Position numbers and translations under genes: made by a program. From positions 14,721-78,720 of the forward strand of contig JAKAVQ010000002.1 of NCBI GenBank assembly GCA_021817245.1: a DNA stretch of 64,000 nt, in the 5' to 3' direction. Below the pieces are notes generated by a model. It ran no database searches, was not told where the DNA came from, and saw only the letters and a list, made by a program, of their open reading frames with translations. Source of the DNA: Thermoplasmata archaeon. Lineage in GTDB: Archaea; Thermoplasmatota; Thermoplasmata; Lutacidiplasmatales; UBA184. Below, piece after piece: positions 2,997 through 52,200 of the stretch. Each line of letters starts with the position of its first letter. Positions within the stretch are counted from its first letter, which is position 1.

Positions 2997-3956
2997 CTAC
3001 CGCGACCCGGGGAACGTGGCCACCGCCGCCGCAGGCGCCGCTCCGGTCTTCCGGAGGGCCCGATGGGCGGCCACGAGGATCAGCACGGCCCCCACCAGGC
3101 CCAGGTACGGGAAGATCAGGAGGACGGCCCCCGCGCGGAAGAACGTCTCGGTGTTCTCGCCCGTGCCCGCGTATCGGGTCCCGAGTCGCCAGATCCCTAC
3201 GAGCACGCCGAGGTAGCCGATCAACGCCACGATCGCGCCGATCCCGACGACCGCGAGCCCGCCGAGGAGCCCCGACGACGCGACGCACGAGGACGGCGGC
3301 GGGCCGACGCCGGTCCCCACGCACTGGACGAACGAGACGATCTCTTCGAGGAGGAGGACGGTTCCGAGGAACACGAGGATCACCCCGATGATGGCGAGCA
3401 GGGCCAAGGTCGCCGGCGCCGAGAATCGCGGGTCGTGGGCCCGCAAGGCCCGGAACGCGAGCCGGTAGAGGACCAGCTCGGCCACGATCACCGCGATGGC
3501 GGCCACCAGGATCCCCGCCCAGACGCCCGGCGATTGGAACGTCAGGATACGCGAGCCCGAGCTGGTCGTGGACGTCGAAACGAACGGGCGCAGGGTGTTG
3601 AGGACGAGCTCGAGCGCGCCGAGCGCACCGCCCAAGAGGGCGAGCAACGCGGCGAGGCGCACCTGGCCGAGAGCACGGCGGTCGGCGTCCCGGGTAGAGG
3701 GGGACGGGCCGGTCCCATACGACGGGGGAAGCGGTCGCGTCGGAGGAAAGGTCGAGGAGGCCGGACCCAAGGGGGACGACGCGGTCGAGGCGCCTCCGAC
3801 CGCGGCCCCGCACGACGGACAGAACGAGGCGGCGGGCGGCACCGGTCGCCCGCAGAAGCTGCACGCCGCGATCGACACCGGCTCCGCGAGGGGCTTTGCG
3901 ATGATAAGGACCGTTCCCCCCGGGCCCGCAAGGGGCCGGTCGTCGACCGCCCCCAC
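2997..3956 (-). CDS. zinc-ribbon membrane protein (DUF973-like; start uncertain)
   Basis: CSFCGRPV…FCPSCGA zinc ribbon followed by a Pro/Ser linker and more than 6 predicted TM helices. ORF-track start 4169 would overlap the divergent pirin gene and its RBS; in-frame GTG at 3956 proposed. Confidence 0.5.
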   Translation of the reverse strand: MGAVDDRPLAGPGGTVLIIAKPLAEPVSIAACSFCGRPVPPAASFCPSCGAAVGGASTASSPLGPASSTFPPTRPLPPSYGTGPSPSTRDADRRALGQVRLAALLALLGGALGALELVLNTLRPFVSTSTTSSGSRILTFQSPGVWAGILVAAIAVIVAELVLYRLAFRALRAHDPRFSAPATLALLAIIGVILVFLGTVLLLEEIVSFVQCVGTGVGPPPSSCVASSGLLGGLAVVGIGAIVALIGYLGVLVGIWRLGTRYAGTGENTETFFRAGAVLLIFPYLGLVGAVLILVAAHRALRKTGAAPAAAVATFPGSR

Positions 3957-4020
3957 GTTACCCGGGCCTCCCCTCCTCCTTAAGTTACTCAAGGTAATTG
4001 AATGGCCGGAGGTTACGACA

Positions 4021-4896
4021 ATGCCCGACCCCGTCCGTTCCGTCGTCCGCCGCTTCCCCGGTCTTCCCACGCTCGAAGGCGCTGGGGTGCGTCTGCGCCG
4101 ATCGTTCTCGAACAACGAGGTCCCGCTCTTCGACCCGTTCCTGTTGCTCGACCGGTTCGGGTCGAGCAACCCCGAGGATTACCTCGCCGGGTTCCCCTGG
4201 CACCCCCACCGGGGGATCGAGACCGTTACCTACATGCTCGACGGCCAGGTCGAGCACGGCGACACCCTCGGCAACTCGGGGGTCATCGCCGCCGGCGACA
4301 TCCAGTGGATGAACTCGGGCAGCGGGATCATCCACCAGGAGATGCCGAAGCGGACCGAGGGGACGCTTTCCGGCTTCCAGCTCTGGGTCAACCTCCCGGC
4401 GGCCCAGAAGATGAGCACCCCGGCGTATCGGGGCCTCTCGTCGACCGAGATCCCCGAGGTCACGACCGACGAGGGGAACCGCGTCAAGGTCGTCGCCGGG
4501 TCGTTCGACCGGGTCGAGGGTCCGGTGCGGGGGCTTTCGGTCGACCCGACGTACCTCGACGTGCGTCTCCCTCCGCACGGTCGCTTCGAGCTCGACCCGC
4601 CCCACGGCTTCACCGTCTTCGCGCACGAGGTCGACGGGAGCGCCACGTTCGACGGGAGCGATCCCCGCCCGGTCGAGGCCGGGGAGACCGCACTCTTCGG
4701 CGCCGGCGGAGCCGTTCGCGCCCGCGCGGCCGACACGGGGGCCCGCTTTCTCCTCGTCTCGGGCCGGCCGCTTCGCGAGCCGGTCGCGTGGTACGGACCG
4801 ATCGTGATGAACCGGCAGGACGAGCTCGCCCAGGCGGTGCGCGAGCTGCGCAACGGCGACTTCATCAAGCACCGCCGGCCGATCGTCGAGGAGTAG
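4021..4896 (+). CDS. pirin family protein
   Basis: ATG 4021 preceded by GGAGGT RBS. HPHRGIETVTYMLDG…H…E cupin metal motifs and both pirin N- and C-domains (…QLWVNLP…). Confidence 0.9.
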   Translation: MPDPVRSVVRRFPGLPTLEGAGVRLRRSFSNNEVPLFDPFLLLDRFGSSNPEDYLAGFPWHPHRGIETVTYMLDGQVEHGDTLGNSGVIAAGDIQWMNSGSGIIHQEMPKRTEGTLSGFQLWVNLPAAQKMSTPAYRGLSSTEIPEVTTDEGNRVKVVAGSFDRVEGPVRGLSVDPTYLDVRLPPHGRFELDPPHGFTVFAHEVDGSATFDGSDPRPVEAGETALFGAGGAVRARAADTGARFLLVSGRPLREPVAWYGPIVMNRQDELAQAVRELRNGDFIKHRRPIVEE

Positions 4897-5935: not shown

Positions 5936-7079
5936 GGGAGACCACCTCCACGACCGTCGAAAGCGCGTCGGCCCACGCCGCCTCGGGAACCGTCAACGGA
6001 GGGAGCAGCCGCAGCACGGTCGCCCCGGCGGAGATCGCGAGGAACCCCCTCGCTTCGAGCTCGGCGAGGACGGGGAGGACCCGCTCGCGCAGCTCGATGC
6101 CGAGGAGGAGGCCGAGCCCCCGCACCTCCCGGACGCGGTCGCCCGAGAGCGCCCGCAGGCGCTCGACCGCGACCGCCCCGAGCCGCTCGGCCCGCTCGGC
6201 GAGTCGCTCGCGAACCGTGAAGTCGAGCGCCGCGAGGCCGGCGGCGCAGGCGAGCGGGTTCCCTCCGAACGTCGAATGGTGGCTGCCCCGAAAGCGACGG
6301 GCGACCTCGTCGGTCGTCACCGTCGCCCCGATCGGGACGCCGCCCGCGAGCGACTTCGCGAGCAGCAGGAGGTCGGGCACGACCCCGGCACGCTCGAAGG
6401 CGAACAGCCGACCCGTCCGGGCGATCCCGGTCTGGACCTCGTCGAACGCGAGCAACGCCCCGCGCGCCTCGGTCGCGGCCCGGGCGGCGCGCAAGTACTC
6501 GGGCGTCGCGACGTGCACGCCGCCCTCTCCTTGCACCGGCTCGAGCAGGACGATGGCGGTCGTCTCGTCGACGGCGGCCTCGAGCGCCGCGATGTCGTTG
6601 AACGGCACGTGGACGAACCCCGGGACGAGCGGTTCGAACGGCTCCCGGAGCTCCCGCCGCCAGGTCGCGCTCAACGCGCCGAGCGTGCGCCCGTGGAACC
6701 CCCGCATCGCCGCGACGACCTTCGGTCGACCGGTCGACGAACGGGCGAACTTGATGCCGGCCTCGACGGCCTCGGTCCCGGAGTTCGAGAGGAAGACCCG
6801 CCCGAACGCCGGCGGGAGGAGGCCGAGCAGCCGCTCGACGAACGCCGTACGCACCGGGTTCGAGTAGCCGGTCCCGAGGTAGATGAGGTCGCGCGCCTGG
6901 TCCGCGAGCGCCCGGGCGACCTCGGGGTTGGCCGCGCCGAGGCTCCCCGCGCCGTGGGTCGCGCCGATATCGAGGTAGCGACGACCCCGGTCGTCGACGA
7001 GGTACGCCCCGTCGGCCCGCACGAGCGATATCGGCCGGGGCGGGGCTCCCCCGATCCCTCGCTCGGCCGGGCCGCTCAT
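5925..7079 (-). CDS. argD: acetylornithine / [LysW]-aminoadipate-semialdehyde aminotransferase (class III PLP)
   Basis: MSGPAERG… start found inside fused ORF 5925..8957 (top 'cat' 7077-7079). Class-III aminotransferase motifs (…FLSNSGTEAVEAGIKFAR…AFDEVQTGIARTG…LLAKSLAGG…). ATGA overlap with upstream argB. Confidence 0.9.
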   Translation of the reverse strand: MSGPAERGIGGAPPRPISLVRADGAYLVDDRGRRYLDIGATHGAGSLGAANPEVARALADQARDLIYLGTGYSNPVRTAFVERLLGLLPPAFGRVFLSNSGTEAVEAGIKFARSSTGRPKVVAAMRGFHGRTLGALSATWRRELREPFEPLVPGFVHVPFNDIAALEAAVDETTAIVLLEPVQGEGGVHVATPEYLRAARAATEARGALLAFDEVQTGIARTGRLFAFERAGVVPDLLLLAKSLAGGVPIGATVTTDEVARRFRGSHHSTFGGNPLACAAGLAALDFTVRERLAERAERLGAVAVERLRALSGDRVREVRGLGLLLGIELRERVLPVLAELEARGFLAISAGATVLRLLPPLTVPEAAWADALSTVVEVVSRGG

Positions 7080-12581: not shown

Positions 12582-12681
12582 TCGCGTTCGTCCGAGCGAC
12601 CGGAGCACGCGGGCGCACGGATTTATAGGCCGCGGCCGTCTTCGGACTTGACTGGGCAATAGTGTCCCAAATAGGACATAT
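12582..12681. promoter_or_regulatory. bidirectional promoter region between argG (-) and the ACT-domain regulator (+)
   Basis: 100-nt intergenic, relatively AT-rich: gatttataggccg (TATA-like on both strands, ~40 nt from argG ATG) and aaataggacatatATG directly before the + gene. Confidence 0.4.
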
Positions 12682-13332
12682 ATGACCAAGGAGACCGCCT
12701 CGATCGCCCGTCGCGTCCACGCCCACCTCGACGCGCACCCCGCCCTCGCGGACGCGATCCGCCTCGGGATCGCGAACTATTCGGCGGTCGCGCGCCTGGT
12801 CTCGAGCGACCTCGAGCTGCGGCAGACGGACGCCGTCCTGGCCGCCTGCCGCCGCTACCCCCGCCGGCGCGGCGAGCTCTTCCGGGACGCGAACGTGCGG
12901 CGCGTCCTACGCAAGAGCCGCATCGAGACCCGGACGAAGGTCGCCGCGATCACGCTGGGCCAGGGATCGGACGTGCTCCAGCGCCTCGGCGACGTCGTCG
13001 AGGAATTGCTCGACGAGAGCTCGCTCTGCCGGGTCATCCAGGTCTCCCGCGGGACCGTCGTACTGGTCGACGAGGATTCGCTCCAGCGGGTGCTCCGCCC
13101 CCTGCGCGAGGGCCAGGTGATCGGGATCCGCCGCAACCTCATCGAGGTCGCGGTCACGAGCCCGGAGAGCATCGAGGAGACGCCGGGCCTCCTGCGGCAC
13201 CTCACGGGGGTCCTCTCGACCCAGGGGATCAACATCGTCGAGGCCCTCTCGTGCTACACGGACACGATCTTCCTGCTCGACCATGACGACCTCGCCCGGG
13301 CGATCGCGGTCCTGACCCCGGCCCTCCAGTGA
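12682..13332 (+). CDS. HTH + ACT-domain putative amino-acid-responsive regulator (COG2150-like)
   Basis: N-terminal helix-turn-helix (GIANYSAVARLV). C-terminal ACT-like fold (…PGLLRHLTGVLSTQGINIVEALSCYTDTIFLLD…). Divergent from the arg operon. Confidence 0.55.
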   Translation: MTKETASIARRVHAHLDAHPALADAIRLGIANYSAVARLVSSDLELRQTDAVLAACRRYPRRRGELFRDANVRRVLRKSRIETRTKVAAITLGQGSDVLQRLGDVVEELLDESSLCRVIQVSRGTVVLVDEDSLQRVLRPLREGQVIGIRRNLIEVAVTSPESIEETPGLLRHLTGVLSTQGINIVEALSCYTDTIFLLDHDDLARAIAVLTPALQ

Positions 13333-14548: not shown

Positions 14549-15015
14549 CCCGCAAGGTCGTACGGCTGGGCGTCTCGCTCGAACCCGAGCTGGTCGACCT
14601 GCTCGACCGCTGGGTAGCGCGACGCAACAGCCGGAGCCGCTCGGGAGGGATCCGGGCGCTGATCCGCAAGGAGCTCAGCGAGCGGACCCTCGCCGACCCC
14701 GACTCGGACGCTCTCGGGGTGGTGGCGCTCCTCTACCGCCACGATACTCCGAACGTTCTCGTGCGCCTCACCCGGGCCGAACACCGGTGGGGCGAGCACG
14801 TCCGGTCCACGTCGCACGTGCACCTCGAGGGGGACGCCTGCGCGGAAGTGGTCGTGCTCGCCGGCCGTCGCCGGGAGATCGAGACCGCGGCCGAGGACCT
14901 GCGGGGCGTGAAGGGGATCCTCGACGGAGGGTGGCTCGTCACGACCCCCGCGGTCGCCGGCGGCCGGACCGGGCATCGCCATCCTCACGCGGCCCCCACC
15001 GGCGAGGCCCGGTGA
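14545..15015 (+). CDS. nikR: nickel-responsive transcriptional regulator NikR
   Basis: GTG overlapping NiCoT stop (GTGA). N-terminal ribbon-helix-helix (KVVRLGVSLEPELVDLLDRWV…). C-terminal metal-binding domain with H…H…C (…HVHLEGDAC…). Confidence 0.85.
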   Translation: MTRKVVRLGVSLEPELVDLLDRWVARRNSRSRSGGIRALIRKELSERTLADPDSDALGVVALLYRHDTPNVLVRLTRAEHRWGEHVRSTSHVHLEGDACAEVVVLAGRRREIETAAEDLRGVKGILDGGWLVTTPAVAGGRTGHRHPHAAPTGEAR

Positions 15016-16175: not shown

Positions 16176-17195
16176 TCACCGCCCAACGCGGGCCCCCTCC
16201 TTCGCTTCGTCGAACGGCGCCGACGGCCGGACGGCGGAGGGCGAGGGATCCGGGGAGCCGTGCCCGGACGAGGGGGCCGGGAGGCGACGGGCGAACTCGC
16301 GCAGGAGGTCGGCGGCCGGCTCGAGGTGACGCGCGGAGACCTGCTCGACGTTGACTCCGAGCGGGACGCTCAGGTCCTCCGCCCGCGCATCCGCGACGAC
16401 CGACTCCCAGACCTCGACGGCGCGCGCCGCGCTCCGCCGGGCGGCTTCGGCGTCGTCCCCCTCGAGGATCGTCCTCTCCGCCGAATCGGGGAGGTCGGCC
16501 CCGAGCCAGCGGACGAACTCGATGTCCGCTTCGTCCGCGATCGGGGCGAAGCTGAGCAGCACGGCGGACGGAGGGATCGACGCGAGCCGGCAGAGCAGGT
16601 CGTACTGGCGGACCATCTGGACCGTGAGGTCGGCGTCGAAGAGGAGCTGCGTGGTGAAGAACGCGGCGCCCGTCCTCGTCTTCGCCAGCATCCGGTGCGG
16701 CTCTCCGACGCGCTGGGGGATCGCGATGTTGCCGAGGAGCCCGCCGACGGCGCGGAAGACGGGCCGGCAGACCCCGTTCGCCTCGGCGACCGGAGGGCCC
16801 GGGTACGGGATGTAGCGGCTCGCTCCGCCGACGAGAACGACATGGCGGATGCCGTGCGCGACGGTCTCGCGTCCCCACCGCTCGAGCGCGTCGGCGCTCT
16901 CGAGGTACGCGACGACCTTGTTGATGACGGCCGGGCGGCCGGTGCGGTCCTGGAGCGCCCGGGCGAACGCGCGCAGGTCCCCCGAACGGTAGTGGGGCTT
17001 TCCCTCGTGGTTCTCGTCCACGAGCTCGGGAACGTCGACCGCGTCGACCCGCCCGACCGAACGGACGAGCGCGCAGACCGCCTCGACGCGTTCCTCGATG
17101 CGGGCCGCGCCCGCCCGCGACGGAGGAGGGACCGGCTCGAAGAAGAGGGGGAAGGCGCGGAGTGCCTCCGTCAAGGGTCGCCCCGCGTCCGTCAC
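16176..17195 (-). CDS. methylenetetrahydrofolate reductase (MetF)-like protein
   Basis: FPLFFEPVPPP (cf. MetF FEFFPP), HGIRHVVLVGG (cf. NGIRHIVALRGD), FFTTQLLFDADLTVQMVRQYD (cf. ITQFFFD…). In-frame GTG 17195 proposed as start; upstream 70 codons of the ORF look non-coding. Confidence 0.55.
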   Translation of the reverse strand: MTDAGRPLTEALRAFPLFFEPVPPPSRAGAARIEERVEAVCALVRSVGRVDAVDVPELVDENHEGKPHYRSGDLRAFARALQDRTGRPAVINKVVAYLESADALERWGRETVAHGIRHVVLVGGASRYIPYPGPPVAEANGVCRPVFRAVGGLLGNIAIPQRVGEPHRMLAKTRTGAAFFTTQLLFDADLTVQMVRQYDLLCRLASIPPSAVLLSFAPIADEADIEFVRWLGADLPDSAERTILEGDDAEAARRSAARAVEVWESVVADARAEDLSVPLGVNVEQVSARHLEPAADLLREFARRLPAPSSGHGSPDPSPSAVRPSAPFDEAKEGARVGR

Positions 17196-17374
17196 GTTCC
17201 GTCCCGGGACACCTCGGATTCGGACGGAGGGCGCGATAAATCGTTTCGTCTCCTCCGGCTCGTTGCGAAGGACGCAAGCGGCGGTCGCCGGGAGCAACCG
17301 GCGCCCGGGCCGCTCGCAACGCGACCGAACGGCCGGACCCTTAGGTTCATCCGAGCGACCGGTCTTCCCGCGGC

Positions 17375-18208
17375 GTGCCGCCCCGACCCGCCGCGCGACG
17401 CCCATCGGCCGGGCCGCGGCTCGGCGACCCGCGGGCGCGCGTCCATATCGCGCCGGTCGGGTTCGAGATCGAGCGGATCACCGAGCCGATCGAGGCCGAG
17501 CGCGCCGACCGTGTCTACCTCATCACCCGGGCCGAACACGACCAGGCGGCGCCGTTCGTGGAGGAGGTCGTCCGTCGCCTCGGGTCGAGCTCGTGGCCGG
17601 TCGAGGTTCGCGTCGTCCGCACGGACCTCTGGAACGTCTTCGGCGCCCTCGCGGTGCTCCGGACGATCTTCGAGAACGAGCGGCGGACCGACCGGAACGC
17701 GTCCGACGTCCTCCCAATCCGGGTGAACGTCTCGACCGGCACCAAGATCACCGCGATCGCGGGGACCCTCGCCTGCATGCTCTGGAAGGGCGAACCGTAC
17801 TACGTCCAGGTCTCCCGGGCCTGGTACTCGGGCCGACTGCCCCGGGTCGCCGCGGTCCACGACGTCGTGGACCGGATCGATCCGGTCGGCGTGTACGCGC
17901 TGCGGGCCCCCGCGCCCGAGCTGGTCTCGGTCCTCGAGGCGCTCCAGCGGCGGGGCGGCTCGCTGCGCAAGCACGAGCTCCTCCGGGAGCTCGGGCTCGA
18001 CCGCCGCGGCCCCGGCGGAGCCCCCGCGGCCTCGCCGCAGGCGCAGCACGGACGCCTGCGACGCCGCCTCGAACCGCTCGAGATCCGGTGGGGGTTCGTG
18101 CGGTCGGAGGCCCCCGGGCCCCGGGCCCGCGTCACGCTCACCGAGCAGGGACGCGTCGCGGTCGCCATCTTTGGGCGGGTCGGCCCGCCCCTGCCCGATA
18201 TTCACTGA
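17375..18208 (+). CDS. HFX_2341-family putative transcriptional regulator (DUF6293 N-domain + C-terminal wHTH)
   Basis: RVHIAPVGFEIERI… matches the family signature (HIVPVGFDYDRI). C-terminal winged helix (…SLRKHELLRELGLD…RVTLTEQGRVAV). Confidence 0.7.
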   Translation: MPPRPAARRPSAGPRLGDPRARVHIAPVGFEIERITEPIEAERADRVYLITRAEHDQAAPFVEEVVRRLGSSSWPVEVRVVRTDLWNVFGALAVLRTIFENERRTDRNASDVLPIRVNVSTGTKITAIAGTLACMLWKGEPYYVQVSRAWYSGRLPRVAAVHDVVDRIDPVGVYALRAPAPELVSVLEALQRRGGSLRKHELLRELGLDRRGPGGAPAASPQAQHGRLRRRLEPLEIRWGFVRSEAPGPRARVTLTEQGRVAVAIFGRVGPPLPDIH

Positions 18209-18241
18209 TGTAACGACTGTAACGTTACTATTGTCAAATAT
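18197..18241. promoter_or_regulatory. AT-rich island with tandem TGTAACG direct repeat
   Basis: gatattcacTGATGTAACGACTGTAACGttactattgtcaaatatcc. Only ~45-nt AT-rich patch in >15 kb of 70% GC. TGTAACG at 18209 and 18218 (9-nt spacing); TATA-like ttactattg/aaatat. Immediately 3' of the HFX_2341 regulator stop. Confidence 0.4.
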
Positions 18242-18552
18242 CCCCTTGGGGGTAGGGACGGACGTGGACGACAGGAACGGACCGGTCGGATTCGGGGGGG
18301 AGATCGCGATCCTCCGTGTGTCGGCGTTCGCGGTGCCGAGGACGGCGTACGCGCCGTGGCCAAACGAGCGTCCGATGGACCGGGACCCCGGTGCGCCAGC
18401 GGTCCCGACGCCCCCGTTCCCCCACCCCCGAAGCCCCCGGCGACGGCCCCGACGCGGCGGGTCGGCCGGGGCTTCCTCTTCCCCGGCCCCCCGGTCGTGA
18501 CACGGACAGCCCCCGCGAACGGCTAAGGGCGGTCGACGCCTTCCCGCCGAAC

Positions 18553-19035
18553 GTGAGCACCGGGCGATTCGCCGCGGTCCTGTCGCTGGCGCGGCAGGGG
18601 TTCTCGGTCGGGGTCGAGTTCGGGGCGCACTCGCTCGAGGCGCTCGTCGGGATCGCGGAGACCGTCGAGGAGTCGGTCTACGAGGCGGGGTCGCTCGCGG
18701 GAACGGCCACCGGGATCTCGTTTGCCCTCGCCAACCCACCGCTGCGCACCGGCGCGTTCGGCGAGGTGCGCCTGCGGATCGACGGGGCGCCAGTGCCCTC
18801 CGACGCCCTCAGGGCGCGCACGGCGACGGCTCCCGACTGGCGGACCGCGTCGACCGTCTCCGCTCGGGCCCCGCTCGAGCTGGCCGCGGGGGTCCGGACC
18901 GAGTTCGCCGTGGACGGTGACTGGGGCCCGAGCGACGGCGAACTCACCGTCCGCCTCGAACTCACGTCGATCGCGATCCCTCCGCTCGTCTGGTTCGAGT
19001 TCCGGGACCGGGTGCGTTCGGGAGGGCCGGGGTGA
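18553..19035 (+). CDS. hypothetical protein (start uncertain), translationally coupled to the GDE-type gene
   Basis: In-frame GTG 18553. …GFSVGVEFGAHSLEALVGIAETVEESVYEAGSLAGTATGISFALANPPLRTGAFGEVRLRIDGAPVP…; non-repetitive composition. Stop overlaps next gene as GTGA. Confidence 0.35.
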   Translation: MSTGRFAAVLSLARQGFSVGVEFGAHSLEALVGIAETVEESVYEAGSLAGTATGISFALANPPLRTGAFGEVRLRIDGAPVPSDALRARTATAPDWRTASTVSARAPLELAAGVRTEFAVDGDWGPSDGELTVRLELTSIAIPPLVWFEFRDRVRSGGPG

Positions 19036-21239
19036 CGGCGGGGCCTGCCGGCCCGGCCCGCTACGGGCCTCCGCCGGTCCTCCTTACGACCCTATCGTCC
19101 GCGGCGCTCCTCGACGGCCGGGGCGACCTCGAGCTCGCCCGGGAGGCGCGCGGCGCGCCCGGTGAATGGGGCGGGGTGTACGGCCAGCTCGTGCGCCTGA
19201 CGGGGCCGTGGCGGCTCTCGCTCGTCGTGGACGGGTCCTCCCGGAGCCTCCCCGAGACGCTCGTCGAAGCGGGCGGCGGGTCGGACCGCTGGCAGACCCG
19301 CCACCGCTGGGGCCGCCTCGAGGTCGCGGAGACCGTGGTCGCCACGGAGGAACCTCCGGGGGCGGTCCGTCGTCTCCGGTGTTCCCTGACCGACGGTCCG
19401 GCCCTCACGCTCACCCTGCGCAGCCGGTTCGTGCCGTTCCTGTTGCCCGTCCTCGTCGAGGGGATCCGACCCGCCCGCTACCGGGCGGACGCGCGACCCG
19501 GCGAGCTGCGGGTCCGCCAGCGCGGCTACGGCCTTTCGTTCCGGTCGAGCGTGGCCCCCTCGCGCCTCTACGCGAACGGGGTCGCCTGGGTCGGGAACTC
19601 CCGGGAGGGTCCGGTCGAGGAGTTCGCATCGGACCACGAAGTCGTTCTGACCCCCGAAGCACCGGTCGAGGTCACGTTCCTCATATCGGGAGGGCTCGAG
19701 CGCTCGATCCCCGACACGGCGTCGTCCGAGCTCGCGACCGGCGACCCGATCGAGGTCGCCGACCGGGCCGAGCGCGCTCGGGTCGCGTGGGAGGCCCGCA
19801 CGCCGATCGTCCGGTTCCCCGGGGCGCCCGAGCTCGAACGCGCGTACGCGCTCGCCCGTTCGGCGCTCCGTCGCCTGTACTCGGCGCCCGGCGACGGCCT
19901 CGTCGGCCTGGTCGCTGGGTACCCTTGGTATGCGGCGATCTGGTGCCGGGACCTTGCCTGGATGCTGCCGGCGGTCCTCTGGCTCGGCGACTTCGACTGG
20001 GCCGAGCGATCGATCGACTCGGTCTTCCGATTCCAGGCGCGGTCGGAGCTGCCGCTCCTGGGCGGGGAGCCCGGGGAGCTTCCGATGCAGATCGCCCCGG
20101 GGCCGCTCTTCCTCTACGGCACCTCCGACACGACCCTCTACTACCCCGAGCTCGTTCTCCGCCTCGCCCGCCACGCGGGCCGCGCCTCCGTGCCGGGGCA
20201 GTGGCGAGACGCGCTCGCCCGGATCGCGGGGTGGGGCCGCGCGCGGGCCGACGCCGAGACGGGCCTTCTGAGGAACGGCGGCGAGGCGGAGACGATGGAG
20301 ATCGCGGCCGGACCGGTGGCGCGGATCCGCTACGGCATCGACGCGCCGGACACGACGATCTGGGATTCGACCGATCGAAGGGACCACGCGATCGACGTTC
20401 AGGTCCTCTGGTGGGGAGCGCTCCGGGCGACGGCCGAGCTCCTCGAGGGCCGCCCCGGCCCGCCGGACCCGGCCGGCCTCCGGGCGCTCGCCGAGCAGGT
20501 CGCCGGCTCCGTCACGAGCCGCTACGCCTGGCCGCAGGAAGGGTACCTCTACGACTCGCTCCGGGCGGGCGCTCCGGTCGCCCAGCTGCGACCGAACGCC
20601 CTGCGGGCGGTCAGCGCGGGGCTCCTCGCGCCCGAGACGGCGCGGTCGGTCGTCCGACGGGCCGCGCGCGACGACCTGACGACCCCGTGGGGGGTGCGGA
20701 CGCTCTCGAGCGCGGACCCGTCGTTCGACCCGGGCACCTACCACGACGGGCAGGTCTGGCCGATCGCGACCGCGTGGGCCGCCGACGCGGCGCTCGCGGC
20801 GGGAGAACGTGAGCTCGGGCTCGCCTACCTCACGTCGATCGCGCGCCAGCTCGCGGCGCAGGCTCCGCACGCGAACGAGTGCTTCCGAGGCGACCGCGAG
20901 GAACCGTTCGACTCGTGCTTCGTGCTCGGGTTCAGCGTCGCCCCGTTCCTCACGATCCTCTTCGAACGTCTCTGGGGGCTGGAGGTCGACGGGAGGGGGC
21001 CCCGCCTCGCGGTTCGGCCCGCGTTCCCGGAATCTCTCCCCCGGGCCTCGATCGACGGGCTGCGGGTCGGGACGGGCAGCGCCCGGCTTCGCTACCGCTC
21101 GGGCCGGCTGTCGGTCGATTGGTCGGGCGGTGCGCCGCTCCGCCTCGAGACCGCGGGAGGGACCACGTGGGTCGGCCCGGGGGAGAGCGCCGAGGTGGAC
21201 GTTGCCGCGGGCGGGAGCGCTGCCCCGCCCCACCCCTAG
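19032..21239 (+). CDS. archaeal-type glycogen debranching enzyme (GDE_C / amylo-alpha-1,6-glucosidase family)
   Basis: YPWYAAIWCRDLAWMLPAVLWLGD, …HDGQVWPIATAW… (alpha/alpha)6-barrel GDE_C signatures. N-terminal beta-sandwich domain. GGAGGG RBS then GTG. Confidence 0.7.
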   Translation: MTAGPAGPARYGPPPVLLTTLSSAALLDGRGDLELAREARGAPGEWGGVYGQLVRLTGPWRLSLVVDGSSRSLPETLVEAGGGSDRWQTRHRWGRLEVAETVVATEEPPGAVRRLRCSLTDGPALTLTLRSRFVPFLLPVLVEGIRPARYRADARPGELRVRQRGYGLSFRSSVAPSRLYANGVAWVGNSREGPVEEFASDHEVVLTPEAPVEVTFLISGGLERSIPDTASSELATGDPIEVADRAERARVAWEARTPIVRFPGAPELERAYALARSALRRLYSAPGDGLVGLVAGYPWYAAIWCRDLAWMLPAVLWLGDFDWAERSIDSVFRFQARSELPLLGGEPGELPMQIAPGPLFLYGTSDTTLYYPELVLRLARHAGRASVPGQWRDALARIAGWGRARADAETGLLRNGGEAETMEIAAGPVARIRYGIDAPDTTIWDSTDRRDHAIDVQVLWWGALRATAELLEGRPGPPDPAGLRALAEQVAGSVTSRYAWPQEGYLYDSLRAGAPVAQLRPNALRAVSAGLLAPETARSVVRRAARDDLTTPWGVRTLSSADPSFDPGTYHDGQVWPIATAWAADAALAAGERELGLAYLTSIARQLAAQAPHANECFRGDREEPFDSCFVLGFSVAPFLTILFERLWGLEVDGRGPRLAVRPAFPESLPRASIDGLRVGTGSARLRYRSGRLSVDWSGGAPLRLETAGGTTWVGPGESAEVDVAAGGSAAPPHP

Positions 21240-52126: not shown

Positions 52127-52200
52127 GCGGGCATAGTGTAGTCTGGTTATCACATAGGCTTGCCAAGCCTATAACCCGGGTTCAAATCCCGGTGCCCGCA
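52127..52200 (+). tRNA. tRNA-Gly (anticodon GCC)
   Basis: GCGGGCA/TGCCCGC acceptor stem. GTG..CAC D-stem. TAGGC-TTGCCAA-GCCTA anticodon arm with GCC in loop positions 34-36. CCGGG-TTCAAAT-CCCGG T-arm. Discriminator A. No encoded CCA, no intron. Coordinates cross-checked against ORF 52000..52338. Confidence 0.85.

Follow-up and report, generated by a model that had tools for sequence, protein, structure and literature searches.

A probable repeat-bearing promoter and a putative structured RNA at the 3′ end of an HFX_2341-family regulator gene in soil Thermoplasmata

Features of the locus

The window that we analysed is a stretch of 64,000 nt (positions 14,721 to 78,720 of contig JAKAVQ010000002.1, Thermoplasmata archaeon assembly GCA_021817245.1). 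It contains a gene for a regulator of the HFX_2341/DUF6293 family, the stop codon of which lies within a short AT-rich island. The island appears to be a promoter with a repeat element, and the region beyond it appears to specify a structured non-coding RNA (ncRNA). For comparison we used 80 species-level Thermoplasmata loci (L001–L080) together with seven metagenome contigs. The features on which the argument turns are the following:

17375–18208, plus strand: HFX_2341/DUF6293-family regulator, with an N-terminal CARF-like Rossmann domain and a C-terminal winged helix
18201–18228, plus strand: candidate operator, made up of TTCAC (18201–18205), GTAAC(G) (18210–18215 and 18219–18224) and an inverted GTTAC (18224–18228)
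18235–18241, plus strand: TATA-like box CAAATAT (family consensus [CT]AA[AG]TA)
about 18264 to 18482, plus strand: putative conserved structured ncRNA of about 220 nt, the 5′ end taken from promoter geometry and the 3′ end approximate

The regulator

The initial annotation had placed this protein in the HFX_2341 family and given it a terminal winged helix-turn-helix (wHTH), and both assignments hold, since it scores above the Pfam cut-offs with PF19810 [HFX_2341_N; 98.9 bits, cut-off 30, residues 22–146] and with PF22665 [DUF6293_C winged helix; 31.7 bits, cut-off 27, residues 173–266]. It also contains RVHIAPVGFEIERI. The AlphaFold model (predicted local distance difference test score 76) has a Rossmann-like domain and a winged helix of topology H-E-H-H-E-E-H, with residues 221–239 (PQAQHGRLRRRLEPLEIRW) as the predicted recognition helix. 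The top Foldseek matches of this model were SSO1393 [3qyf, E 3.8e-6], Csa3 [2wte and 6w11, E 1.6e-5 to 1.6e-4] and the CARF domains of Csm6 and Can2, that of Card1 being found as well; as modelled, the fold is that of a CARF domain plus wHTH like Csa3. The match to the Csa3 family TIGR01884 is weak [29.2 bits, under the curated cut-off of 60.2]. A PDB sequence-profile search with the regulator alignment gave no match, nor did an exact-sequence look-up of the window's protein find a record. No CRISPR-like array was detected in the 64 kb; cas genes were not exhaustively searched for.

Close homologues number in the hundreds (68–95% identity) and all derive from metagenome-assembled genomes of soil and peat Thermoplasmata, including Candidatus Lutacidiplasma, the order of which has been described (PMC9287336). 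A search of 1.84 billion cluster representatives put the regulator clade in one 50%-identity cluster, beyond which scores fall sharply, to members from Nitrososphaeria, Bathyarchaeia and haloarchaea. Judged by these scores, the Thermoplasmata proteins form a tight subfamily of their own.

The AT-rich island as a probable promoter

The window has a GC content of 73.0%, and its minimum for 45-nt windows is found at 18197–18241 (31%); the next-lowest values are 42% (at 12639 and 3980) and 44% (at 52133). The patch sits, as initially annotated, directly at the regulator stop, where the ORF reads ...GAT ATT CAC TGA with the TGA at 18206–18208, and both inspection and a repeat finder place TGTAACG in it twice at 9-nt spacing (18209–18215 and 18218–18224). 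No further copy of TGTAACG or its reverse complement occurs in the window. The initial annotation held that nothing comparable exists elsewhere in this DNA, which is correct for the GC minimum and for TGTAACG but overstated otherwise, as weaker AT patches occur at 3974, 12646, 13345, 49640 and 55118. Those checked lie about 25–30 nt upstream of start codons, a position which indicates that the AT islands of this genome are the TATA boxes of leaderless genes; the one at 18197–18241 is simply the longest of them.

The island is a compact control region between two genes. In 72 loci its TATA-like box stands a fixed 28–29 nt from a conserved GTGGA (at 18264 in the window), and because this distance recurs at the other leaderless promoters of the window that were checked, we infer that transcription starts at about 18263–18264. 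Of the two roles first proposed for the patch, promoter or terminator, the fixed geometry favours the former, in the shape of an archaeal promoter that carries a repeat element and has been conserved. The terminator role found no support: scans of the window for bacterial sigma-70 promoters and for intrinsic terminators returned no sites, these bacterial-type scans being ill suited to an archaeon.

The repeat element

The TGTAACG pair noted initially is part of a larger, conserved element. At almost every locus three direct repeats TT(A/C)AC(G), in a strict 9-bp period, are followed by an inverted copy and then by the TATA-like box. The operator consensus over 72 loci is aaTTCAC..A.TTAACG.aTTTAACGTTAC; in full, the consensus reads aaTTCAC..A.TTAACG.aTTTAACGTTACaata.cTAAgTAg, then about 22 nt, then tCGTGGA. 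In the window the second TGTAACG runs into GTTAC to give the perfect palindrome GTAACGTTAC (18219–18228). The 20-nt composite TKTAACGNNTKTAACGTTAC, searched for with up to three mismatches, has a single site in the window, matched perfectly on the plus strand (a three-mismatch match on the minus strand at the same site reflects the palindromic symmetry), and was not matched in 100 shuffles. When a position weight matrix (PWM) built from 44 sites was run over the window and the 80 loci, every match of at least 18 bits fell at the regulator–RNA junction.

The first repeat, TTCAC, falls inside the last codons of the regulator, ATT CAC TGA. The C-terminal ..I-H-stop is encoded by this repeat (ATTCACTGA; 18197–18208 in the window and the 3′ ends of L001–L080), which is why many orthologues end in ..H-stop. 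At four loci (L009, L051, L054 and L056) the coding sequence continues across the repeats, and its stop codon falls within the TATA box.

Other sites were considered and set aside. Hexamer counts and the PWM scan revealed no autoregulatory site upstream of the regulator or nearby, and hexamer peaks within the regulator gene are coding (RVNV = GTGAACGTC). GTTAC also occurs three times at 27–28 nt spacing at 3955–4015, in the AT-rich promoter region of an ORF with its ATG at 4022; this cluster (3957–4012) has neither the AACGTT core nor a PWM match and was rejected as an operator copy.

At the junction itself the repeats extend to about -38 and border the TFB recognition element (BRE), whose position, 18229–18234, abuts or overlaps the candidate operator. 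Among archaeal promoters generally, a site abutting the BRE is compatible with activation or with repression.

A putative structured RNA

Some 300 nt (18242–18552) separate the island from the next annotated gene, and the initial annotation offered two readings of them, a small protein or a long 5′ untranslated region (UTR) of the small hypothetical and GDE genes that follow. Neither is upheld; the region seems instead to specify an independent, conserved structured ncRNA with the following predicted elements:

18274–18280 with 18414–18420, plus strand: P1, long-range helix GGAACGG/CCGUUCC, enclosing P2–P4
18284–18293 with 18307–18316, plus strand: P2 hairpin, from pair counts and clade alifold
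18321–18375, plus strand: P3 core, with a closing stem (18321–18330 with 18365–18375), GGUGCC (18332–18337) and GGCC(A/G)A (18358–18363)
18342–18347 with 18352–18357, plus strand: 6-bp hairpin of P3, loop UACG
18382–18387 with 18401–18406, plus strand: P4 hairpin, GGGACC/GGUCCC, from pair counts
18419–18431, plus strand: C-rich stretch CCCCCACCCCCGA, conserved in the alignment and apparently single-stranded
18430–18440 with 18466–18475, plus strand: P5 terminal hairpin, GAAGCCCCCGG/CCGGGGCUUC, with a pyrimidine-rich tail CUCUUCC to 18482

Over the 42 named pairs and 36 sequences, 78% of the cells pair, compared with 34–52% when the partners are slid by 1–3 columns. The corresponding covariation score is 0.36 (0.09–0.19 when slid) and was reached in none of 500 shuffles, a count which is not a probability as the sequences are related. 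P3 is the universally conserved part, its core being GGUGC(A/C)NNRG, a 6-bp stem with its tetraloop, and GGCC(G/A)A. Its hairpin is 100% paired in 71 distinct sequences, with a change from A-U to G-C on 28 occasions and further double changes (the exchanges being A-U/G-C, G-C/A-U and C-G/U-A); the covariation score is 0.456, against 0.08–0.19 for slid controls, and RNAalifold recovered the domain. P1 is 74% paired over the 36 sequences, switches from A-U to G-C at 13/158 in 13 of them and is found in clade-wise alifold predictions. In P2 both sides have changed in 8 of 10 pairs (65% of cells paired) and in P4 in 6 of 6 (69%).

The P2 loop (18294–18306) is G-rich and conserved, reading GGGGGGGAG in the window and GGGGUUGGA in other clades. 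The C-rich stretch has no pairing partner in the consensus folds; pairing with the P2 loop is possible, and GUGG at 18264–18267 may pair with CCAC at 18422–18425. A terminal hairpin is predicted in every clade and is followed by U4–5 in clade B, and the P5 region is probably the 3′ end of the RNA or its terminator region. Since P5 is not alignable between clades, the end at about 18482 is approximate.

Two covariance models were built. R1 (the 5′ 119 nt) matches the window at 18264–18382 with 100 bits and R2 (P1–P4) at 18264–18431 with 152.6 bits. Nine held-out sequences scored 87–133 bits with R2, all over the full length bar one cut by a contig end.

Could 18264–18500 nevertheless encode a small leaderless protein of 78 amino acids, its GTG lying at the transcription start? 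A GTG or ATG is present at the predicted 5′ end in all clades, no stop interrupts the frame that begins at GTG 18264 for 78 codons, and the translations are superficially alike (VPKTAxxPWP). The corresponding ORFs of relatives, however, run to 44–100 codons with unrelated ends, and by our own calculation about 63 codons are expected by chance at 73% GC; lengths are not conserved, and there is no Pfam or NCBIfam match. Column entropy by codon position is flat in the RNA region (1.04/1.08/0.98), whereas the regulator gene, as a control, has the excess of third-position variation expected of coding sequence (0.20/0.12/0.81). An in-frame TAG interrupts the most conserved segment, GUGCACUAGG, in four sequences (L056, L066, L074 and L124), the codon reading Q, W, E, R or stop across relatives, and the helices are kept by compensatory double substitutions. 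The region appears to evolve as a structured RNA and not as coding sequence, and a leaderless ORF at 18264 retains only a slight chance.

A cmscan search of 18100–18700 with the 4227 families of Rfam 15 found nothing at E<=5, and in seven relatives there was no match at the RNA element at E<=1; the sole Rfam match in the window is a tRNA-Gly elsewhere. The element is like mid-sized structured ncRNAs of Rfam in size and in being structured, but matches none of them even at these permissive thresholds. That it is a divergent housekeeping RNA missed by the models, such as signal recognition particle (SRP) RNA or RNase P RNA, is in our estimation the least probable of the alternatives. A likeness by eye to RNase P CR-I/CR-V and to SRP helix 8 was dropped on inspection: the CR-V-like stretch (GAACGGCUAAG, GAACGGCTAAG; GAACGGCTAAGG at 18513–18528) turned out to be the TATA region of the gene that follows, and another TATA-like box takes its place wherever that gene is a different one; nor does the helix topology agree with P4, and the motifs GNAR and AGCA of SRP RNA are missing. 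We take the element to be a structured ncRNA that has apparently not been described before.

Linkage of regulator, promoter and RNA

Over 663 kb R1 matched 76 times, exactly once per locus, and every match lies directly 3′ of the regulator and on its strand. Among loci with enough downstream sequence only L064 and L069 were unmatched. L064 (1079–1400) has kept the AT-rich repeat/TATA-like element after the stop codon, with no R1 match downstream of it; L069 (1872–2300) has neither the RNA nor the repeat/TATA-like element. We also searched from the RNA outwards, scanning metagenome contigs with a degenerate core pattern and checking the hits with R1. Seven of the 120 matches listed were real by R1, the remainder being mostly chance, and the regulator lay directly upstream in 6/6 of the real ones with enough upstream sequence. 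There were no new lineages among the matches listed.

The genes that follow the RNA are less constant. A small ORF and a GDE gene follow in 40 loci and an ABC ATPase gene directly in about 18, while others have convergent or unrelated genes. With the flanks changing in this way, what stays constant is a unit of regulator, repeat promoter and RNA.

A competing proposal takes the region for a 5′ leader that acts in cis, as an attenuator or in the manner of a riboswitch, on the operon formed by the small ORF, GDE and ABC transporter genes. In its favour, the next gene is co-directional and starts shortly past the RNA 3′ end in about 58 of 77 loci, an ABC ATPase gene lies directly or about 3 kb downstream in 52, and the window has at best a weak or ill-defined terminator. 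The constancy of the unit argues against such a leader, although it is compatible with some read-through: the downstream gene differs by clade, and clades G and H have kept the RNA with a convergent or unrelated gene behind it. Each downstream gene, moreover, has a TATA-like box of its own about 26–30 nt before its start codon, and clade B has the U4–5 run behind the terminal hairpin. We consider a leader improbable.

More distant members of the regulator family, from Nitrososphaeria and Bathyarchaeia (L201–L204) and from haloarchaea (L205 and L206), gave no R1, Rfam or operator match, and within the reach of these tools the RNA would be specific to the soil Thermoplasmata subfamily. In the two Nitrososphaera-type loci (L201, 1946–2410; L202, 1992–2462) a divergent PIN-domain gene lies directly upstream of the regulator, and downstream of the regulator are 210–240 gene-free nt without similarity to the Thermoplasmata RNA. 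On the Nitrosotenuis-like and Bathyarchaeia contigs (L203, 1–2410; L204, 1–2417) the regulator is divergent to a Multi_ubiq/Prok-E2/ThiF(E1)/TIR_2 operon; as this operon is ubiquitin-like and of defence type, those relatives may regulate defence genes. The two haloarchaeal loci have ordinary metabolic neighbours.

Correlation between the regulator and the repeats

The recognition helix H3 has the pattern QAQH-x-RL-x-x-RL throughout the clade, most of its variation falling at residues 226, 229 and 230. G226 with R230 goes with AACGTTAC, at 31 loci having exactly that helix motif and at others with close variants. Where residue 226 is S, the site differs with residue 230: AACCAGAAAG for I or L, AACC(A/T)GAA for H, AACG(G/T)RAA for N and A(A/G)C(G/A)CTT(C/A)A for T, which can be summarised as AACC(A/T)GAA, AACGKRAA or AGCGTTCA. 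Replacement of R229 by S, A or T is accompanied by a change of TTAACG to TTCACG in the third repeat, both in L023 of clade D and in L037/L038 of a separate group. These correlations largely follow the clades; they suggest, without proving it, that the regulator controls the promoter. Still, the initial suggestion of an operator for the adjacent regulator gains from them: being unique to the junction and co-varying with residues of H3, the repeat element is the best candidate.

The most serious competing explanation accepts the promoter and the ncRNA as real but has another transcription factor bind the repeats, or makes them a factor-independent upstream element, the regulator being adjacent through descent and overlap. 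In its favour, the loci are all from a single clade; the regulator coding sequence includes the first repeat and in some cases the TATA box, which would by itself preserve adjacency; the co-changes of protein and operator are largely clade-following; and the PWM scan found no further operator copy that would define a regulon. Against it, the adjacency has outlasted at least three downstream rearrangements, and H3 is largely invariant save for the three positions that track operator bases, with the change at R229 occurring repeatedly (L023, L037/L038). We regard this explanation as unlikely, though by some way the least unlikely of those considered.

Interpretation

Taken as a whole, the locus is best explained by a repeat promoter that drives an ncRNA and is controlled by the adjacent regulator, to which we assign a probability of roughly 0.7. 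Its components differ in strength. That there is a promoter followed by an ncRNA is, on the comparative evidence, very probable; that the regulator binds the repeats and gates RNA synthesis according to a CARF ligand is somewhat favoured. Mechanistically, a dimer or oligomer of the regulator would bind the repeats abutting the BRE and set expression of the RNA in response to a small ligand sensed by the CARF domain, and the RNA would act in trans or bind a protein, as the output of the regulator. We advance only tentatively, and with less than even odds, the further idea that the RNA represents a class new to archaea, regulatory or protein-binding, the synthesis of which a CARF-domain transcription factor gates, and that it is the main, perhaps the sole, direct target of the regulator.

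Several observations weigh against this interpretation. Every sequence comes from one tight clade, the regulators being a single 50%-identity cluster, so that the shuffle statistics are inflated by relatedness and the adjacency may in part be a matter of descent; the overlap of promoter and regulator 3′ end could alone freeze the gene order. Neither the PWM scan of the window and the 80 loci nor the composite search of the window found a second operator site, and therefore no regulon can be defined. As to the RNA, P2 and P4 are just 65–69% paired, the single-sequence fold is not above shuffles (z = +1.55), and the most distant clades match R2 at the P3 core of about 40–55 nt alone, the outer helices being unrecovered, although clade-wise folds of these clades have analogous outer helices, placed differently. 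The 5′ end has a conserved RTG triplet, with the open frame of 78 codons in the window. The start site, the RNA 3′ end and the contact between regulator and operator are all inferences. Lastly, in vitro binding of Sulfolobus Csa3a to its palindromic promoter motif has been reported to be nonspecific (PMC8699464).

Comparison with known systems

Csa3a and Csa3b of the Sulfolobales have pseudo-palindromic promoter motifs (CAPP) in or next to the BRE/TATA region, and their CARF domain senses cyclic tetra-adenylate (cA4) (PMC8699464, PMC4333418, PMC5389559). The CARF plus wHTH architecture is common to both systems, and these proteins are the top fold matches of the regulator. Their sites, however, are palindromes of 18–24 bp, whereas here a 9-bp direct-repeat array is combined with a palindrome; there is no CRISPR array nearby, TIGR01884 stays below its cut-off, and the candidate target is an ncRNA promoter.

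In the OxyR–OxyS and GcvA–GcvB pairs of bacteria, a transcription factor gene adjoins a small RNA gene whose promoter holds the operator of that factor, and the RNA extends the regulator's reach. Those pairs are divergent and sigma-70 dependent, and their RNAs are Hfq-dependent and of about 100–200 nt. Here, in contrast, the genes are in tandem, the candidate operator overlaps the regulator stop codon and the promoter is of the archaeal TATA type; the RNA is predicted to fold into a multi-helix junction, and a CARF protein is the regulator.

Haloferax mediterranei HFX_2341, after which PF19810 is named, has the same architecture (HFX_2341_N plus DUF6293_C wHTH), again with a fold like that of Csa3a. 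The protein is vertically inherited with high conservation, and its gene does not adjoin CRISPR loci. Both deletion and over-expression point to a repressor of broad effect, transport genes being one example, and a repressor role is known in the family for this organism only; the one experimental study found leaves open whether the effects are direct, and it reports neither a binding site nor a neighbouring RNA (PMC11434293). Its haloarchaeal kin in our set (L205 and L206) lack an RNA-model or operator match.

Neighbouring genes and other features

The regulator's neighbours in the window are MTHFR-like, GDE and ABC transporter genes. Downstream of the RNA lie:

18513–18528, plus strand: second promoter GAACGGCTAAGG, with TATA-like CTAAGG at 18523–18528, about 30 nt upstream of GTG 18553
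18553–19035, plus strand: small hypothetical protein of 160 amino acids, with tblastn orthologues in 40 loci at 40–90% identity and in the same position
19032–21239, plus strand: GDE_C/MGH1-like glycoside hydrolase [PF06202, 63.3 bits; PF22422, 38.2 bits]

In related loci GAACCGATAAG is conserved about 26–30 nt ahead of the downstream start codon, and where another gene lies downstream it has a TATA-like box of its own at that distance; the mRNA of the small ORF is apparently leaderless. Its product has no Pfam or NCBIfam match. The coupling of the two genes by GTGA was read correctly from the start, the small ORF's stop (19033–19035) overlapping the GDE start at 19032, as was the debranching enzyme-type assignment, now backed by PF06202 (GDE_C). 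The two genes (18553–21239) behave as a cassette: in 40 loci they are inserted behind the RNA and ahead of an ABC-2-type transporter, and they are absent from the roughly 18 where the ABC ATPase gene directly follows the RNA. The GDE_C gene is context, outside the regulator–RNA module.

A divergent MTHFR-like gene (16176–17405, minus strand) is the kept upstream neighbour of the regulator in most loci. In the window its longest ORF overlaps the regulator start (17375, plus strand) by 30 nt, and its true start is therefore probably further in.

Two other parts of the window deserve mention. At 12620–12690 an AT-rich promoter-like patch, GGATTTATAGG ... CAATAGTGTCCCAAATAGGACATATATGACC, has the perfect palindrome TGTCC-N6-GGACA around a TATA-like CAAATAGG, and the palindrome looks like an operator for a different regulator. 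At 6096–6193 (minus strand) ARAGORN called a "tRNA-???" with a 2-base anticodon, overlapping a 24-nt tandem repeat (6124–6189); as Rfam places no tRNA there, the call is probably a false positive.

Significance

HFX_2341/DUF6293 proteins are widespread, highly conserved CARF regulators of archaea for which no operator or direct target is known. The present locus supplies a testable candidate operator of about 30 bp and one adjacent candidate target, and corrects the annotation of a 300-nt "gap" which, on the comparative evidence, would be neither protein gene nor UTR. It thereby offers three handles: DNA with which binding and ligands can be assayed, an RNA motif that can be probed for structure and searched for in metatranscriptomes, and residue-to-base correlations that predict how the helix reads its site. 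The RNA itself appears to be conserved in about 80 species-level genomes of Thermoplasmata that are abundant in acid soil and peat. If the interpretation is true, this would be the first case of a CARF (cyclic-nucleotide-type) signal turned into an ncRNA output outside CRISPR immunity, and it would provide a route for the indirect "global" effects of HFX_2341-family proteins.

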